The notes under the pieces were generated by a model. That model saw only the letters and a list, made by a program, of their open reading frames with translations. It ran no database searches and was not told the DNA's origin. Source: an uncultured Chitinophaga sp. (GTDB taxonomy: Bacteria > Bacteroidota > Bacteroidia > Chitinophagales > LD1). From it: a DNA stretch of 64,000 bases. Below, in pieces: positions 2,162-60,870 of this stretch. The stretch lies in contig CAZBPG010000007.1 of the NCBI GenBank assembly GCA_964493695.1, positions 329 to 64,328 of the forward strand, written 5' to 3'. The position numbers and the translations under genes were made by a program. Numbering within the stretch: position 1 is the stretch's first letter; each line of letters starts with the position of its first letter.

Positions 2162-5134
2162 CTACTTCCCTAACGCTTTATAAATCACCTCCTGCAAATC
2201 GGTGCGGATGTTCATTTTTACTAACTGATTGTTTTCGGCATTGGGGTAAACGCGGTTGCTGAGGAAAATATACGTCAGGTTATTTTCGGGATCGCCCCAA
2301 ACACAAGTACCGGTAAAGCCGGTGTGACCAAAAACCGAAAGCGGAACTCCATCATAACAAGGTGATGGCTTGCTCACATCCGGTTCGGGTTTATCAAACC
2401 CGAAACCTCTTCGTGAAATTTTTGACTGGCGCGAGGTGAAAAATTTAATAGTTGCTGAGTCGAGAAAGTGCTTGCCGTTGTAAGTTCCGTTGTTGAGCAA
2501 CATTTGAAAAAGTGCAGCCAGGTCAAACGCATTACTGAAAACTCCTGCATGTCCCGCCACTCCGCCATACATAGCCGCACCGGGGTCATGCACGTAACCA
2601 CGCACTACCTGTTTACGGAAAGCAGAATCATTTTCGGTAGGCAGAACTCTTTCGCGCACATACCTTTCTGTGGGGTTGAAACCAATTCGCGTTAAGCCCA
2701 TCGGGCGATAAAAATTCTGATTCACAAATTCCTCCAACCTCTTGCCCGAAATTTTTTCTGCAATTTTTTGAAGAATGTAAAAATCGTTATCACTGTAAAC
2801 ATACTTAGGATGTTCGTCTACCGATGAATGGTTGATAATGCTCCACATGGTATCGGGATAATCGTTGCGGATAAAAAGAGAATCAGCCACTCGAATTGAA
2901 AAAATGGAATCAGCAGTCTTGCGATAATAATTTCCGAAGTTGCTGTCAATGGTGTTTTTGTAAAACATAAAAAATGCTTTGAGTCCCGCCTGGTGCGTAA
3001 GCACATCCCTCAGCTTTAATTTTTTTATAGTTGCGCCCTTAGGCAGAGCGAGATAATCGCCAACAGTTTTATCGAGGTTAATTTTTTTCTGTTCGTAAAG
3101 TTTCATCACTGCGAGCGTGGTAGCGGCCACCTTGGTAATAGAAGCGAGGTCGTACAACTCGGCAGGCTTAACCACCTCAGCGCTCTCGTAAATTTTTGTT
3201 CCATAGCACTTGTTCCAAATTACCTTTCCGTCCTTTGCTATCAACAACTGGCAACCGGGAAATGCTTTACCGTCAATTCCCTTTTGAATGATGTCATCCA
3301 CTCGTCTCAACTCTGCTGTTTTTAAACCAACCTCCTCAGGTGCTGAAATTTTTAAACGATAAACATAGTCGGAAACAAAACCGGCACCTGCGGGAAAAAC
3401 CGGTGAAGCGGTAACCGGCAACTTTCCCGAAATTTTTTCAGCACCAAACAAAGCGTTAGCTGCTGCGAGATTAGTGGCATCGTTGTCTTCATATACTTCA
3501 AGAATCCATGGCGTGTATTCAAAAAACTTCAGCGAGTAAGGATTTCCGAAAACACAAAGCACTACCTTTGTTCTGCCGGTGAGCGAGTCTATAAACTTTC
3601 TGGTTTCTTCGGTTACGTTGTAATTTTTTGCAGCAGCCCGAACCATAGCGTGCAAATCAACTATCACCAAATCATAAGTAGCCAGCGTATCGAAAATACC
3701 GTTGAATGCTTTTTCGTTGTGCTCAAAACTCTGATTAAAAAAATCTATTTCCGCAAAATTATTGATGTGCCGTTGAAAGGGCGATGCACCGGAATTGCCA
3801 ATAGAAAGCGAAGCCACTTTTTTGTAATTCCAATCTTTGAAAGGCAGTAAATTCTCGTGATTCGCAGCAAGCGTTATAGCTTGCTCATACAATTTCTGCC
3901 GAAGCATTTTTCCTTTCGTGTTGTTTAAATCATCGCGCAAATTTTCGAGGGCTACATGCTGCGGTTTATTCAAACCCAGTTTGTATTTATACGCTAAAAC
4001 TTTTTTAACGCGGGCCTCCAACTCGCTTGCAGTAATCACCCCGCTATCCACTGCCATTTTGATTTTTTCAATTCCTTTCGAAGCATCTTCGCTGAACACC
4101 AGAATATCACAGCCCGCCATAAATGCCAAAGAGTCAACCGTGCCGGGTTTGTAATATTTGGCAACACCTTTCATGTTCAGCGCATCCGAAAAAACCAAAC
4201 CATCAAAACCCAGCGAATCTTTCAGCCAACCGGTGGCAATTTTTTTCGAAATGGAAGCCACGGAGCCGGAATCGCTGTCAAGAGAAGGAACGTTTAGGTG
4301 AGCCACCATCGCACTGCCCACATTGTTTTTGAAAAGAATTTTGAAGGGGTAAAATTCCAGCGAATCAAAACCGGCTGCACTCTTGGTTATTATTGGTAAA
4401 TCAAAATGCGAATCAGTATTCACATCCCCATGACCGGGGAAATGTTTCGCGCAGGCAAGTACGCCCTCATCCTGCATACCATCTGCGTATTCAATTCCTT
4501 TAAGCGCAACCTTGTATTTATCTTCACCAAAGCTCCGGTCGTTAATCACCGGATTATCGGGATTGTTGTTTACGTCTACATCGGGCGCAAAGTTGATGTT
4601 GATGCCGATGCGCCTGCATTCGCGACCAATCTCTCGGCCCATTTCATAAATCAAAGTATTGTCAGCCACAGCGCCCAGGGCAATCTGATGCGGAAAAGAG
4701 ATGGTAGAATCTAAGCGCATAGCTAAACCCCATTCGCCATCAATGGCAACAAAACTTTTCACTTTACAGGAGTCTTGAATTTTGTTTGTCCATTCGGCTT
4801 GCGGCTCCGGCAAGCCCTTAAAGAAAATTACACCACCGGCTTTGCCTTGTTTCATCGAACTCAAAACCGAGTCCATGTTATACAGCTTGCCATCGGTGTA
4901 GGCGGCAAGCATAAAAAACTGCCCGATCTGTTCCTCGACAGAGAGTTGATTGTAAACAGAATCAACCCATTTTATGCAAGCAGTATCTTTTTTCCAGTTT
5001 CTGAAATCGGGGTTCTGGGAGTAAGATGATAGACAATAGATGATAGACAATAGACAAACGCAAGCATGAAGCCCGAACTTTCTGATTTCTGATTTCTGAT
5101 TTCTGATTTCCACTTGTGCGAATAGACAAAACAT
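2162..5134 (-). CDS. Secreted fusion protein: glycoside hydrolase family 3 (NagZ-like beta-N-acetylhexosaminidase) N-terminal half plus serine beta-lactamase/PBP-like C-terminal half
   Basis: 990 aa. GH3 motifs (KHFPGHGD, INFAPDVDV). C-terminal ASITK (SxxK) and a class C beta-lactamase-like region. Signal peptide ...CLSSYS/QN. The heptamer repeat lies in the first 20 codons. Confidence 0.8.
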   Translation of the reverse strand: MFCLFAQVEIRNQKSEIRKFGLHACVCLLSIIYCLSSYSQNPDFRNWKKDTACIKWVDSVYNQLSVEEQIGQFFMLAAYTDGKLYNMDSVLSSMKQGKAGGVIFFKGLPEPQAEWTNKIQDSCKVKSFVAIDGEWGLAMRLDSTISFPHQIALGAVADNTLIYEMGREIGRECRRIGININFAPDVDVNNNPDNPVINDRSFGEDKYKVALKGIEYADGMQDEGVLACAKHFPGHGDVNTDSHFDLPIITKSAAGFDSLEFYPFKILFKNNVGSAMVAHLNVPSLDSDSGSVASISKKIATGWLKDSLGFDGLVFSDALNMKGVAKYYKPGTVDSLAFMAGCDILVFSEDASKGIEKIKMAVDSGVITASELEARVKKVLAYKYKLGLNKPQHVALENLRDDLNNTKGKMLRQKLYEQAITLAANHENLLPFKDWNYKKVASLSIGNSGASPFQRHINNFAEIDFFNQSFEHNEKAFNGIFDTLATYDLVIVDLHAMVRAAAKNYNVTEETRKFIDSLTGRTKVVLCVFGNPYSLKFFEYTPWILEVYEDNDATNLAAANALFGAEKISGKLPVTASPVFPAGAGFVSDYVYRLKISAPEEVGLKTAELRRVDDIIQKGIDGKAFPGCQLLIAKDGKVIWNKCYGTKIYESAEVVKPAELYDLASITKVAATTLAVMKLYEQKKINLDKTVGDYLALPKGATIKKLKLRDVLTHQAGLKAFFMFYKNTIDSNFGNYYRKTADSIFSIRVADSLFIRNDYPDTMWSIINHSSVDEHPKYVYSDNDFYILQKIAEKISGKRLEEFVNQNFYRPMGLTRIGFNPTERYVRERVLPTENDSAFRKQVVRGYVHDPGAAMYGGVAGHAGVFSNAFDLAALFQMLLNNGTYNGKHFLDSATIKFFTSRQSKISRRGFGFDKPEPDVSKPSPCYDGVPLSVFGHTGFTGTCVWGDPENNLTYIFLSNRVYPNAENNQLVKMNIRTDLQEVIYKALGK
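5034..5061. repeat. Direct 14-nt repeat GATGATAGACAATA x2 (ATAGACA-type heptamer family) in the signal-peptide coding region of the GH3 gene
   Basis: Read directly from the sequence. Encodes the hydrophobic core LLSIIYCLSS. Confidence 0.85.
5081..5112. repeat. Heptanucleotide tandem tract (TTTCTGA)x4.5, the reverse complement of (GAAATCA)n, in codons 9-18 of the GH3 gene
   Basis: Read directly. The reverse complement GGAAATCAGAAATCAGAAATCAGAAATCAGAA is identical to 6478-6509 in mutL. Confidence 0.95.
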
Positions 5135-5250
5135 TTATCGTGCCCTGCCTAATTCTATTAACGACTTTTCTACGGTTTTATGTTGATTGAATTACAGAAT
5201 TAAAATTTCCCAACAGAAAGCGAATTCTGCAAGGAAGAAATGCAAATAAT

Positions 5251-5258
5251 TAAGTTTG
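5251..5258 (+). promoter_or_regulatory. Candidate Bacteroidetes -7 promoter box TAAGTTTG upstream of mutL
   Basis: Matches TAnnTTTG. Ends 8 nt before the mutL ATG, so the leader would be very short. A single motif match only. Confidence 0.3.
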
Positions 5259-5265
5259 CGAACTC

Positions 5266-7104
5266 ATGGACATTATTCGTCTTCTGCCCGATAATATTGC
5301 CAATCAAATTGCTGCCGGTGAGGTTATTCAACGACCATCTTCAGCCGTAAAGGAGTTGTTGGAAAACTCAATTGATTCGGGTGCTACGCATGTTAAACTG
5401 ATTGTAAAACAGGCAGGAAAAAGTTTAGTTCAGGTGATAGACAATGGTTGCGGTATGAGTGAAACCGATGCCCGCATGTGTTTTGAAAAACATGCCACTT
5501 CAAAAATTCGGGCGGCAGAAGATTTGTTCAACATCCGCACCATGGGTTTTCGCGGAGAGGCCTTGGCTTCTATAGCAGCCATTGCACAAGTTGAATTGAA
5601 AACAAAACAGACCGGTGAGCAATTGGGCACTTTGATTGAAATTGAAGGAATGAAAGTGCTGAAGCAGGAGCCCTGTCAAACAGAAGAAGGAACTTCGATT
5701 GCCATGAAGAACCTCTTTTTCAATGTTCCGGCAAGAAGAAATTTTTTGAAAAGCGATACGGTGGAGTTGAAAAATATTATTGAAGAATTTCAGCGCATCG
5801 CTTTGGCGCATCCTAAAATCGGCTTTCAGCTTTTTAATAACGATTACGAGATGTATCATTTGAAGACAGGGAACCTGAAACAGAGAATTGTCGCCTTGTT
5901 CGGAGATAATTATGCTGAGAAGATTGTACCGGTGGAAGAAAAAAGCTACGCGCTTCATGTCTACGGCTTTACCGGCAAGCCGGAGTTTTCGAAGAAGACA
6001 AGAGGCGAGCAATTCATTTATGTAAACAACCGCTTTATCAAATCGCCTTATTTGAACCATGCGGTTTCGATGGCGTTTGAACAGATGATTCCGCAAGGCA
6101 GTCATCCGTTTTATGTTTTGTTCTTAGATATTGATCCTTCGAAAATTGACATCAACGTTCATCCTGCTAAATACGAAATCAAGTTTGAGGACGAGAAACT
6201 GGTTTACACATTTGTGAATCTTGGAATAAAACATGCATTGGGCGCTTACAGCGTTTCTCCCACTTTAGATTTTAATCAGGAGCACCATTTGAACAACAAC
6301 GATACGTTTACCCAACAGCCGCGCACCTGGCTGGAGATTACCCAACAGGCTACGTCAACAAGAGATGCAAAAAAGTATGCGCCACCCAGTAATTTTCAAT
6401 CGCTTAATAAACGGGAAGAAAATAATTTAAAGAATTGGGAACATGCGTTTGATACAGTAAGCAGTAGTAACCAGCCGGAAATCAGAAATCAGAAATCAGA
6501 AATCAGAAGTTCGGCAGAGCATGACGTTTATAAAGAAGCGGTGCCACCACACCAAATTCAAAACAGGTACATCGTTTCGCAAATTAAGAGCGGATTTATT
6601 TTGATTGACCAGCAAGCAGCACATGAGCGGATTATGTTCGAGCGGTTTTTAAAATTGCTCGATAGAAACCGAAATGAAAGCCAGCGGCAATTGTTTCCGC
6701 AGAACTTAGATTTGAATGCAATGGACACTCAGATTCTTTTGCAGATTCTTCCGGAGATAAACAATCTAGGTTTCGATATTCAGGAGTTTGGCAAGAACAG
6801 TTTTGTCATTCATGGGTTTCCTGCTGATATTTTACAGGGTGATGAAAAGAAAATGATTGAAGAGTTGATAGAACAGTTCAAGATGAATTCGCAGGTAACC
6901 AAACTTTCTAAACGCGAAACACTGGCGAAATCATTAGCACATAGCTCCAGCATTAAGGCGGGCAAAAAGCTGTCTGTAGAGGAAATGAAAACCTTGATAG
7001 ATGAATTGTTCGCCTGCGAAAATGCTTTTACTGCTCCCAATGGCAGATTTACTTTTATAACACTTAATAACGATGAATTAGAAAAGCGGTTCGAGAACAA
7101 ATAA
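5266..7104 (+). CDS. mutL: DNA mismatch repair protein MutL
   Basis: 612 aa. GHKL ATPase N-terminus (IANQIAAGEVIQRPSSAVKELLENSIDSGAT), C-terminal dimerisation/endonuclease region (QAAHERIMFE). Confidence 0.95.
   Translation: MDIIRLLPDNIANQIAAGEVIQRPSSAVKELLENSIDSGATHVKLIVKQAGKSLVQVIDNGCGMSETDARMCFEKHATSKIRAAEDLFNIRTMGFRGEALASIAAIAQVELKTKQTGEQLGTLIEIEGMKVLKQEPCQTEEGTSIAMKNLFFNVPARRNFLKSDTVELKNIIEEFQRIALAHPKIGFQLFNNDYEMYHLKTGNLKQRIVALFGDNYAEKIVPVEEKSYALHVYGFTGKPEFSKKTRGEQFIYVNNRFIKSPYLNHAVSMAFEQMIPQGSHPFYVLFLDIDPSKIDINVHPAKYEIKFEDEKLVYTFVNLGIKHALGAYSVSPTLDFNQEHHLNNNDTFTQQPRTWLEITQQATSTRDAKKYAPPSNFQSLNKREENNLKNWEHAFDTVSSSNQPEIRNQKSEIRSSAEHDVYKEAVPPHQIQNRYIVSQIKSGFILIDQQAAHERIMFERFLKLLDRNRNESQRQLFPQNLDLNAMDTQILLQILPEINNLGFDIQEFGKNSFVIHGFPADILQGDEKKMIEELIEQFKMNSQVTKLSKRETLAKSLAHSSSIKAGKKLSVEEMKTLIDELFACENAFTAPNGRFTFITLNNDELEKRFENK
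6479..6509. repeat. Heptanucleotide tandem tract (GAAATCA)x4.4 inside the MutL inter-domain linker
   Basis: Read directly. Encodes EIRNQKSEIR, the same peptide and reading phase as the inverted tract at 5081-5112. Confidence 0.95.
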
Positions 7105-8736: not shown

Positions 8737-10050
8737 GTGAACAGGCTCATACGCGGATTAAGTTTACGACAAGCCGTTGCTATAAACACTATTGACATGG
8801 TGGGCATTGGTCCGTTCATTACCATTCCATTTATCATTGGAGCCATGAATGGCCCGCAGTGTATTCTGGCATGGGTGCTGGGTGCGGTGCTTTCTTTTGC
8901 CGATGGCTCTGTTTGGGCAGAACTTGGCGCTAAATGGCCCGAAGCCGGAGGCAGCTACTCCTTTCTGCAAAACCTTTACGGCAAGAAAAAATGCGGAAGA
9001 CTACTTTCATTCCTTTACATCTGGCAAACAATTATTCAGGCACCATTGGTGGTAGCATCAGGTGCTATTGGTTTTTCGCAGTATCTCACTTTCTTAATTC
9101 CGCTTACAACCATTGAGCAAAAAATTGTTTCCGGTGCATTGGTTATTCTTATCACCATTCTACTCTACCGAAAGATTACCGACATCGGAAAAATTTCCGT
9201 GTTCATGGGGATGATAGTTGCCGGCACAATTCTATGGTTGATTTTAAGCGCTGTTCCGAATTTCAATTCATCGCTTGCATTTACTTATTCGAAAGATGCT
9301 TTTGACCTTACACCTGTTTTCTTTTTGGGATTGGGCCAGGCAAGTATTAAAACGGTTTATTCTTTTCTCGGCTACTATAACGTGTGTCATTTAGGCGGAG
9401 AGATTAAAGAACCGGAGCGCAATATTCCGCGCAGTATTTTTATTTCAATCGCCATCATTGCCGTACTGTATTTACTGATGCAGATTTCTGTGCTTGGAAT
9501 TATTCCCTGGCAGGAGGCAAAAGACTCTCCGTTTATTGTCAGTTTATATTTCGAAAAAATTTACGGACATACCATTGCGCTGGTGGCAACAGCTTTGGTT
9601 CTTTTCATAGCTATTACCTCTCTGTTTGCTGTCTTGCTTGGTTATTCGCGAGTGCCTTATGCTGCAGCAGTAGATGGAAATTTCTTTTCTGTGTTCGGTA
9701 AACTGCATCCAACCAAGCACTTTCCGCATGTTTCATTATTGATTCTTGCCGGAGTAGCTTTTGTTTTCAGTTTGCTGTTTAAAATGAAGGAGGTCATCAC
9801 TGCCATTATCGTGATGCGGATTATCGTTCAGTTTCTGGGGCAAAGCATAGGTATTCTTCTCTATCACAAAAAGCACAACAATGAAAAATTTCCTTTCCGC
9901 ATGTGGCTTTATCCCTTACCCGCATTTGTTGGAATTATAGTGTGGCTTTTCATTTTCTTTTCTGCCGATTGGTTTTACATAACTGGTGCAATAGGCGTAA
10001 TAGCATTGGGTTGTTTGGTTTATTGGCTGAAAGAAAAACGAACTGCTTAG
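8737..10050 (+). CDS. APC superfamily amino acid permease
   Basis: 437 aa, about 12 hydrophobic segments, N-terminal amino-acid permease signature region. GTG start. Confidence 0.8.
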   Translation: MNRLIRGLSLRQAVAINTIDMVGIGPFITIPFIIGAMNGPQCILAWVLGAVLSFADGSVWAELGAKWPEAGGSYSFLQNLYGKKKCGRLLSFLYIWQTIIQAPLVVASGAIGFSQYLTFLIPLTTIEQKIVSGALVILITILLYRKITDIGKISVFMGMIVAGTILWLILSAVPNFNSSLAFTYSKDAFDLTPVFFLGLGQASIKTVYSFLGYYNVCHLGGEIKEPERNIPRSIFISIAIIAVLYLLMQISVLGIIPWQEAKDSPFIVSLYFEKIYGHTIALVATALVLFIAITSLFAVLLGYSRVPYAAAVDGNFFSVFGKLHPTKHFPHVSLLILAGVAFVFSLLFKMKEVITAIIVMRIIVQFLGQSIGILLYHKKHNNEKFPFRMWLYPLPAFVGIIVWLFIFFSADWFYITGAIGVIALGCLVYWLKEKRTA

Positions 10051-41787: not shown

Positions 41788-41978
41788 TTAACGACAGATA
41801 TGACGACAGCTTAACGATAAACCACGACAACTGAACGACAATGCACGAAAGGTTAACGATAAACCACGACAGCTTAACGACAATGCACGAAAGGCTAACG
41901 ACAAACCGCGACAGTTTAACGACAATTCACGCAAGGCTAACGATAAACCACGACAGCTTAACGACAATCCAAAGCAAG
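41788..41978. repeat. Tandem array of nine 21-bp units (YTAACGAYAA-N-CACGA...), alternating two subtypes to give a 42-bp higher-order repeat
   Basis: Unit starts at 41788, 41811, 41832, 41853, 41874, 41895, 41916, 41937 and 41958. Two degenerate units lie upstream at ~41736 and ~41759. Confidence 0.9.
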
Positions 41979-56376: not shown

Positions 56377-56853
56377 CTAAAAGCTGATGGCTACCACCTT
56401 ATCCCACAATAATAACTCGCCTTGTAATTCCTGCTGAGTTTTTTCTGCGTCTGCCCTTGTCTTGAATGCAGCTAGTTGCCCGCCCATAGGGCTGTTGACA
56501 TTTCCTCCTTTAAGAAAGAATGCCTTATCTGCTTCTATTAATTCTTCAGGATTGGAATAATTGATGATGAGAAACTTGTTAGCTTCAAAGTTCTTGTCCG
56601 AGTTGAGGTAATTGACCATACATTCACCGGAATCAAATTTTATAGCTTTACCTTTCTTATTCACCATTTCGGCTCCGAATTTTTTATCCATAATCGTCAT
56701 CCTGCAAAATTCGCAATGATCTTTTCCGAAATGTATGGGCTGGGGCTCAGTATTGCATGAACAGACAACAGACAACAGACAACAGACAATAGACCATGCA
56801 AGAACCCTTCGGTAATTTCTGTTTTTTACTTTCTGTTTACAAATAGCTGTCAT
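56377..56853 (-). CDS. nosL: NosL copper chaperone-like lipoprotein
   Basis: 158 aa. Cys-rich signal/lipobox region. CEFCRM...FDS..C motif typical of NosL. Confidence 0.8.
   Translation of the reverse strand: MTAICKQKVKNRNYRRVLAWSIVCCLLSVVCSCNTEPQPIHFGKDHCEFCRMTIMDKKFGAEMVNKKGKAIKFDSGECMVNYLNSDKNFEANKFLIINYSNPEELIEADKAFFLKGGNVNSPMGGQLAAFKTRADAEKTQQELQGELLLWDKVVAISF
56762..56795. repeat. Heptanucleotide tandem tract (ACAGACA)x4 plus one degenerate unit, in the nosL signal-peptide coding region
   Basis: Read directly. Encodes CCLLSVVCSC on the minus strand. Confidence 0.95.
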
Positions 56854-60110: not shown

Positions 60111-60515
60111 TAAAAAAAGACCTGTTAGTCTTTCTCAGGGTAAATCCTTCAGGGCAATGGCATTAGGTTAAGGGGCAAAGTAAAAAATAAAAAGCTATGA
60201 TTATTACTTTTTGAGTGTCCGCACCCCAAAAAAATTCCGATTCCCTTGTTTTGGCAACATACACTCGTATTAAACGAATTGCTTTTGTTCCCCCCAAAAA
60301 CAACTACACCGCTAAAATTGACCACAAACAAAGCTAACCTCAAACCATCCCTAAAATTTCTTCGGGCTTCCCAGCCACCAACACCAAGGGCGGAATTACT
60401 TTCCGCTTCTCGCTGGCAGATTAAAAGAACCTCTTAGAAAGACAAAAAGCATTCGAAAAACAACAAAATCGTCTGTTTTTCGGGTTTCACGAAGCGGAGG
60501 GGAGGTCTCACCAAT

Positions 60516-60870
60516 CATTGCGGAAGACTCCTGAATGGTTCGGGAAGGCTCACCAGCCATTGCGGAAGACTCCCGAATGGTTCAGGAAGACTCACCAGCC
60601 ATTGCGGAAGGCTCCCGAATGGTTCAGGAAGACTCACCAGCCATTGCGGAAGGCTCCCGAATGGCTCAGGAAGACTCACCAGCCATTGCGGAAGGCTCCC
60701 GAATGGTTCAGGAAGACTCACCAGCCATTGCGGAAGGCTCCCGAATGGCTCAGGAAGACCCACCAGCCATTGCGGAAGGCTCCCGAATGGCTCAGGAAGA
60801 CTCACCGACCATTGCGGAAGACTCCTGAATGGTTCGGGAAGGCTCAACAACCATTGCGGGAGGCCCCGTA
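60516..60870. repeat. Tandem array of about 8.5 copies of a 42-bp unit (CATTGCGGAAGGCTCCCGAATGGTTCAGGAAGACTCACCAGC)
   Basis: CATTGCGG starts at 60516, 60558, 60600, 60642, 60684, 60726, 60768, 60810 and 60852 (all 42 bp apart). There is an internal 21-bp half-periodicity (GGAAGRCTC twice per unit). Confidence 0.95.

Follow-up and report, generated by a model that had tools for sequence, protein, structure and literature searches.

Classical contingency loci, such as Neisseria opa with its CTCTT unit and the Haemophilus tetranucleotides, carry repeats in the 5' coding or signal-peptide region, and the Bacteroides invertible promoters, fimS and hin use dedicated site-specific recombinases and conserved inverted repeats. 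The short tandemly repeated repetitive (STRR) heptamers of cyanobacteria are likewise heptanucleotide repeats. A survey of simple sequence repeats (SSRs) is on record for H. influenzae (PMC2651432). Heptanucleotides are the most abundant class of long SSRs (LSSRs) in bacteria according to Mrazek et al. 2007, as summarised in PMC4679880. Heptamer repeats of the unit TAACTGA are known from Beggiatoaceae, Cyanobacteria and Bacteroidetes (MacGregor 2015, PMC4679880); the origin of heptamer LSSRs is described there as unexplained, with polymerase slippage proposed. In Salmonella, switching of the mutL allele from (GCTGGC)3 to (GCTGGC)2 was observed experimentally (Chen et al. 2010, PMC2955026), and a mutL repeat case from E. 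coli B is cited in that paper. Here, we describe two heptanucleotide arrays, one in mutL and the other in a divergently transcribed GH3 gene, in an uncultured Chitinophaga sp. from activated sludge. The window, i.e. the whole stretch of DNA that was analysed, comprises 64,000 nt of contig CAZBPG010000007.1. We consider it fairly probable that the two tracts are dispersed heptanucleotide SSRs in two permissive coding segments, where they would act as low-rate frameshift hotspots and not as a programmed switch.

Two identical tracts in mutL and the GH3 gene

The two genes and their tracts are as follows.

5266..7104, plus strand: mutL, 612 aa, with HATPase_c_3, DNA_mis_repair and MutL_C domains (Pfam)
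6477..6508, plus strand: array of heptanucleotide units, G(GAAATCA)x4 GAA, encoding EIRNQKSEIR (residues 405-414) in the linker between the MutL domains
2162..5113, minus strand: fusion of a GH3 N-terminal domain with a class-C beta-lactamase-like serine hydrolase (Pfam), likely start GTG 5113-5111
5080..5111, minus strand: (GAAATCA)n array, reverse complement, codons 2-11 of the GH3/beta-lactamase gene as counted from its likely GTG, in the signal-peptide n-region

The 32-nt tract GGAAATCAGAAATCAGAAATCAGAAATCAGAA was found at 6477-6508 on the plus strand and its exact reverse complement at 5080-5111. The arms of this inverted pair are 100% complementary, with 1365 nt between them, and Tandem Repeats Finder (TRF) assigned period 7 to both, with 4.4 and 4.6 copies and 100% matches. 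The original prediction had pointed to identical 32-nt tracts in inverted orientation, and the perfect pair was indeed present, with coordinates that had been set 1-2 nt too high. Both tracts are read as GAA ATC AGA AAT CAG AAA TCA GAA ATC AGA and encode EIRNQKSEIR, which confirmed the predicted common phase and peptide. The MutL tract lies between the Pfam domains DNA_mis_repair (209-325) and MutL_C (430-569) and is therefore located in the interdomain linker of a protein whose relatives carry the NCBI name 'DNA mismatch repair endonuclease MutL'. The tract of the GH3 gene corresponds to codons 9-18 if counted from the long open reading frame (ORF) 2162-5134.

A search of the window with the 21-nt core, allowing up to 2 mismatches, matched the two tracts alone (expectation from 100 dinucleotide shuffles, 0), in agreement with the claim that the heptamer tract occurs nowhere else in it. 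The tract strand was unstructured, with a folding minimum free energy (MFE) of 0, and an Rfam scan of the whole window gave no matches. An assembly artefact was ruled out because L198 (loci of other assemblies are given here as L numbers), an independent assembly from another sample that is 99.1% identical over 5377 nt without gaps, carries both tracts with length, copy number and orientation unchanged.

Because 7 and 3 are coprime, every frame of (GAAATCA)n yields the same cyclic peptide, EIRNQKS. The antisense strand, (TGATTTC)n, contains TGA in all three frames, and the repeat can therefore sit in genes only in the sense orientation. It follows that two divergent genes that both carry the tract must show an inverted pair with the same peptide. 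MacGregor argues likewise from stop codons and frames for the TAACTGA repeats (PMC4679880). The special meaning that had been attached to an inverted, in-phase pair was thus not upheld, as orientation and peptide are dictated by the repeat. The pairing of the tracts would be a by-product of these coding constraints, combined with a lineage-specific coincidence of unit and copy number.

Heptamer arrays in relatives and in other genomes

The MutL relatives are named Bacteroidetes or Chitinophagales bacteria, and many members of the clade share the divergent GH3-mutL arrangement. The MutL array is a perfect (GAAATCA)4.4 in L203/L204 (mutL 84% nt identity), has one mismatch in L199-L202 (mutL 88% nt identity) and in L123, retains 3.6 perfect units in L121 and is decayed in L120 and L197. 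The comparison of tract length with related strains gave the same length throughout (window, L203, L199, L123, L121 and L120) and thus no support for variability. In the GH3 gene, the closest GH3 relative found, L205, carries (GAAATCA)3.4; L199-L201 carry a perfect (GAAATAC)4.6, L203/L204 have the same array with one mismatch, and the array is degenerate in L120 and L197. The distance from the GTG to QNPDF was 32 codons in all five lineages checked.

Further relatives showed other units or other neighbours. L206 (MutL 80% aa identity) contains a perfect 32-nt (CAGACAA)4.6 array in the MutL linker, together with (AGTTGGC)3.4 and (AACCGGC)3.4 in the GH3 5' region. The AGTTGGC array of L206, at 1881-1904, closely follows the conserved element upstream of GH3, and the AGTTGGC unit encodes 'SWQLAVG', which we take to be typical of the cyanobacterial STRR heptamers. 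In L121 and L123 the MutL array is present with an upstream neighbour that is not GH3; this neighbour is a thioredoxin-like gene in L121, and the region upstream of mutL in L123 (1-352) presumably resembles RNase P RNA, as judged from its GAGGAAAGTCCGGGC motif. Among 128 relatives, the MutL linker peptides were EIRNQKS-like in 21 and NRQQTTD-like (AACAGAC-encoded) in 19, with none in the rest of the protein.

In the loci compared, both sites are recurrent homes of heptamer arrays of ~3.4-4.6 copies with lineage-specific units, and, by the same comparison, the arrays at the two sites evolve independently. The 32-nt identity between the two arrays is confined to the lineage of the window. The idea of the paired tract as a unit could not be sustained, since the units of L199 and L203 differ between the sites, those of L206 are unrelated, and L121 and L123 are without a GH3 neighbour.

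The repeat is also dispersed well outside this locus. We found more than 119 occurrences of the 21-nt core (GAAATCA)3 among the matches listed for GTDB representative genomes, in many phyla. Run lengths among these listed matches cluster at 26-27 and 32-33 nt, and sense ORFs of 100 aa or more contain about half of the listed copies. The flanks of the GTDB copies are unrelated, with no homology found among them. Ten coding hosts, whose identities were assigned by reading their sequences, include IleRS-, HisRS-, Mfd- and E2-like proteins and glycosyltransferases, in which the tract encodes KSEIRNQKSEI. This peptide was observed in frame at L118, L071, L009, L016, L051 and L083, from Chitinophagaceae, Niabella and Verrucomicrobia. 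The genome of the relative L199 (CANJLD01) holds at least one further copy, L080. In the sludge runs containing the window, Logan contig depth was 75-204 at both tracts versus ~5-20 alongside, and many sludge contigs matched the tract alone, with other flanks.

A third array of the window is of the same class, with a different unit.

56760..56794, minus strand: (AACAGAC)x5, last unit imperfect, encoding the NosL signal-peptide core SIVCCLLSVVCSC; ORF 56377-56853, next to NosD

The AACAGAC unit family also provides the MutL-linker array of L206 and, as (TTGTCTG)n, the core of the GH3 signal peptide in L199. The NosL array was present on many other contigs of the same metagenomes, at a depth of up to 894 versus 3-10. 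Among periods 4-12, only period 7 gave perfect arrays (at least 3 copies and at least 20 nt), which agrees with heptanucleotides as the commonest long-SSR class (PMC4679880). The window has 3 such arrays; 80 kb of sequence from close relatives contained 7, and 477 kb from other MutL loci contained 5, compared with 0.005 in shuffled windows. The tracts accordingly have the properties of the heptanucleotide LSSR class, namely tandem units within the range of 5-11 nt beyond chance and a unit that recurs at many loci and genomes. The original prediction had treated the tracts as a specific pair and had itself named a generic dispersed microsatellite as the finding that would speak against this, and many copies across genomes are what the searches returned. 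Two longer tandem arrays were also noted in the window, at 60507-60868 (42-nt unit x8.6, 92% matches) and at 41803-41971 (21/42-nt unit x8/3.7); they overlap no ORF save frames generated by the repeats themselves.

Upkeep and turnover of the arrays differ between lineages. Between the window and L203, 15.8% of mutL sites and 39% of third codon positions differ, whereas 0 of 31 tract positions differ versus 18 of 111 in the flanks (P ~0.004-0.007). On the MutL tree, L203 has L197 as its sister, and these two differ at 8 of the 31 tract positions. Between the GAAATCA and GAAATAC arrays of GH3, the same two bases differ in every unit. Such a whole-array unit change cannot be explained by independent substitutions and therefore points to concerted evolution by slippage or conversion. 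Slippage probably operates on these arrays on an evolutionary time scale, as these patterns of unit replacement suggest, and within coding sequence it would imply transient frameshifted intermediates or compensating events. The coding arrays centre on ~4.6 copies (32-33 nt), which may represent a seed of ~1.6 copies to which 21 nt, the smallest gain that keeps the frame, was added.

The GH3 start and the divergent region

The following features surround the 5' end of the GH3 gene.

5114..5265, no strand assigned: divergent intergenic region, with two elements kept across relatives (eye alignment of eight relatives)
5119-5136: conserved element AAATGTTTTGTCTATTCG (GH3 sense), including the ATG chosen by gene callers for the GH3 start ('MFCSFA...')
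5160-5187: conserved element ATCAACATAAAACCGTAGAAAAGTCGTT (GH3 sense)
5024..5057, minus strand: second repeat, 14-nt unit x2.2 (TTGTCTA/TCATCTA heptamers; TRF), encoding LLSIIYCLSS, the hydrophobic core of the GH3 signal peptide

The GH3 ORF is open up to ATG 5134. We rejected this ATG as the start, since it lies inside the conserved upstream DNA element, which is kept even where the ATG is out of frame with GH3 (L125 and L133). Moreover, relatives with a predicted ORF starting at the upstream ATG mostly have ATG at position 8, and GTG in this subclade. The GTG at 5113-5111 is the likely GH3 start by this comparison; the array would therefore begin at codon 2 and form the basic n-region of the signal peptide. 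Both non-coding elements between mutL and GH3 are kept in relatives down to ~80% MutL identity, and those at 5119-5136 and 5160-5187 are probably promoter or leader elements.

In L199, (TTGTCTG)n at 9757-9779 takes the place of the second GH3 repeat of the window. In this clade, the whole GH3 signal peptide is composed of two adjoining repeats, a GAAATCA/GAAATAC n-region and a TTGTCTA/TTGTCTG core. More distant relatives have ordinary non-repeat GH3 signal peptides, e.g. MKKRPRYVFKCLMIGVV...

Window genes near the tracts include GT4, HepT/MNT, rhomboid, PIG-L, permease and ThrA. A toxin-antitoxin-like pair, composed of a HepT-like RNase and an MNT-type nucleotidyltransferase, is located at 1466-2123 on the minus strand between the GT4 glycosyltransferase and GH3 genes. 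This pair is missing there in syntenic relatives: GT4 and GH3 are adjacent in L120, and L199 has a GldM-like gene between them.

Explanations for the tracts and comparison with known systems

If the tracts are dispersed SSRs in permissive coding segments, the disordered MutL linker and the GH3 signal-peptide n-region would tolerate almost any sequence as long as the frame is kept. Replication slippage, or conversion within an array, would create the arrays and keep their units alike while selection preserves the reading frame. The 32-nt identity would be a lineage-specific coincidence or perhaps stem from a single ectopic conversion; it would not reflect an inverted repeat by design. The expected consequence would be a low-rate, reversible frameshift hotspot that yields either mutators lacking MutL or cells lacking the GH3 protein. 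Such a hotspot would resemble in kind the one at (GCTGGC)3 in enterobacterial mutL and would not be a high-frequency programmed switch. Rare reversible frameshifts in mutL are plausible, given the signs of slippage-type turnover; a selected switch is not supported by these data, and the tracts are unlikely to act as an inversion device.

Several points weigh against this explanation. The perfect MutL array over ~16% nt divergence could mean selection for the repeat, either for mutability or for a function at the DNA or RNA level. Homogenisation by slippage in coding sequence passes through frameshifted states, as a switch would predict. The hexamer GTTCGG stands next to the end of each tract, shifted by 1 nt between the two; this hints at ectopic conversion but did not reach significance in shuffles. 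Finally, the array census of the organism's own genome spans the 64-kb window, and the allele evidence consists of consensus assemblies and k=31 contigs.

The strongest alternative is a selected contingency or mutator switch, in which perfect arrays are kept since a change of +/-7 nt toggles MutL and the GH3 enzyme and lineages benefit; we consider it unlikely. In silico, a change of +/-1 or +/-2 units ends MutL at 414-450 aa, before the C-terminal domain, and the GH3 protein at 44-52 aa, while +/-3 units keep both reading frames and are silent. The MutL array is perfect or nearly so in four lineages despite 31-39% third-position divergence, and frameshift-prone heptamer arrays of differing unit families recur in the MutL linker. 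Additionally, the GH3 and NosL arrays are found in signal-peptide coding regions, the classical place of phase-variable repeats, and repeat-mediated mutL switching in Salmonella and E. coli provides a precedent (PMC2955026).

In contrast, the variation that such a switch would produce was not observed. No copy-number difference was found in any assembly compared, including L198, these being consensus assemblies in which minority alleles are hidden, and no length polymorphism appeared in L198 or in at least five species-level lineages with identical tract length. The window sequence is contained in 22 runs, whose Logan contigs (k=31) end within the 32-nt tracts, and the Logan contigs of eight runs showed no indels or joints at the tracts, a result of low power on account of these breaks. 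No protein in a collection of 5.8 billion sequences shares words with the 41-aa tail of the -1/+2 frame, and no defective mutL alleles differing in repeat number were seen among the 120 relatives listed, the cluster members and the frameshift-tail search. Compared with a contingency locus, the tracts show the change of frame with unit number in silico, and copy-number polymorphism was not detected, at low power. The original prediction of truncation by gain or loss of a unit is therefore arithmetically correct, but the switch built on it gained no support from length variants or frameshift alleles.

The distribution of the repeat argues in the same direction. Other genomes carry the tract in frame within essential enzymes (IleRS- and HisRS-like proteins), for which switching makes no sense, and its tolerance there argues that 4-5 copies slip rarely enough. 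SSR slippage depends on length, and low rates are expected for an array of only 4.4 copies. The decayed arrays of L120 and L197 show that the repeat is dispensable. We regard as rather improbable the wider proposal that, in an environmental Chitinophagales clade, MutL-linker arrays of ~4.6 copies are kept perfect as a self-reverting +/-7-nt mutator switch, with possible exchange with the inverted array in the present locus.

Ectopic gene conversion, by which a GAAATAC-type GH3 array was overwritten in this lineage from the MutL array 1.4 kb away, is distinctly unlikely. The GAAATAC unit of GH3 (L199, L203 and L197) occurs in both subclades of the MutL tree, the GH3 array of the window equals its MutL array with boundaries included, and the shared GTTCGG is not found in the GH3 flanks of L205 and L120. 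However, L205 already has GAAATCA and L120 a GAAATCA-like unit, so that this unit may be ancestral in GH3, and the homology between GAAATAC and GAAATCA arrays is poor. Shuffle tests showed no significant flank similarity (anchored P = 0.12-0.48, local P = 0.24). With the GTDB flanks unrelated as well, flank homology was rejected as a sign of conversion or of a copied or mobile segment.

It is very doubtful that the GH3 array is kept for a local function, as an A-rich unstructured stretch after the start that also supplies the basic n-region and favours translation initiation. Such a function would suit a gene of the Bacteroidota whose leader is very short. The first codon of the tract is codon 2, its A content is 57% and its MFE, as given above, is 0; the unit variants at this site in close relatives (GAAATCA, GAAATAC and GAAATTA) are A-rich and place R/K every 7 residues, and the distance from the GTG to the mature N-terminus is constant. 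Nevertheless, distant relatives manage with ordinary signal peptides free of repeats, the units of L206 at this site are GC-rich, and the MutL array is left unexplained.

A recombinational switch, in which the tracts serve as inverted repeats and flip the 1365-bp segment with both promoters and both 5' ends, is extremely improbable: the perfect 32-nt inverted identity in the same codon phase and the two open, in-frame chimeric ORFs of a simulated inversion bear out part of the original proposal, and a minority form is compatible with the Logan data, as k=31 unitigs cannot resolve orientation, but the inverted identity is absent from L199 and L203 (GAAATAC versus GAAATCA) and from L206 with its unrelated units, the loci L121 and L123 have no GH3 neighbour, the orientation is already forced by stop codons, the two assemblies that span the tracts (window and L198) both have the reference orientation, no recombinase or invertase gene was found by Pfam within ~5-10 kb in the window or the syntenic loci, the chimeras would inactivate both genes, and repeats of 32 bp are barely long enough for RecA-dependent exchange. 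Of the attributes of an invertible switch, the inverted repeats flanking a segment were present, whereas conservation of the pair in relatives and a nearby recombinase were absent.

We therefore return to dispersed SSRs in permissive segments as our preferred explanation. The locus illustrates how microsatellites of 7-nt units become lodged in permissive coding segments such as disordered linkers and signal peptides, and how the coding properties of a repeat, with one peptide in any frame and stops opposite, can mimic 'design'. It also has comparative value, as orthologous arrays can be traced through whole-array unit replacement at constant length and perfect upkeep in some lineages. If +/-7-nt mutL alleles exist, repeat-mediated mutator switching would extend from enterobacteria to uncultured Bacteroidota, by way of a frameshift.

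Upon comparison with known systems, the likeness to invertible switches was limited to inverted repeats that flank a promoter-containing segment; here, no recombinase is nearby, and the repeats are coding microsatellites that are not conserved as a pair. As in contingency loci, a unit that is not a multiple of 3 occupies the first codons of genes for exported proteins (GH3 and NosL). The repeats of contingency loci, however, are much higher in copy number and vary in length both among and within strains, whereas 4-5 copies without visible polymorphism were found here.

The mutL GCTGGC repeat is similar in that a short tandem repeat lies inside mutL, where a slipped-strand change of copy number would inactivate mismatch repair and could revert. 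In that system, a change in the number of 6-nt units preserves the frame and modifies the ATP-lid, and the repeat is conserved across the enterobacterial complex. In contrast, the present unit is 7 nt, lies in the linker and would shift the frame before the C-terminal domain; four lineages have a perfect or almost perfect array, L120 and L197 have a decayed one, and in L206 another unit family takes its place; variant mutL tract alleles, unlike in the GCTGGC case, were not seen among the assemblies and relatives compared.

The closest resemblance is to the heptanucleotide LSSRs (PMC4679880), which likewise consist of few tandem 7-nt units dispersed over loci and phyla, with one orientation barred from ORFs by stops in all frames and coding copies at termini or variable regions. 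The present arrays differ from the TAACTGA LSSRs in their unit, GAAATCA, in their hosts and in being coding, whereas the TAACTGA arrays are mostly intergenic, just upstream of start codons. They differ further in that orthologous arrays could here be traced across species, with the unit replaced at constant length.

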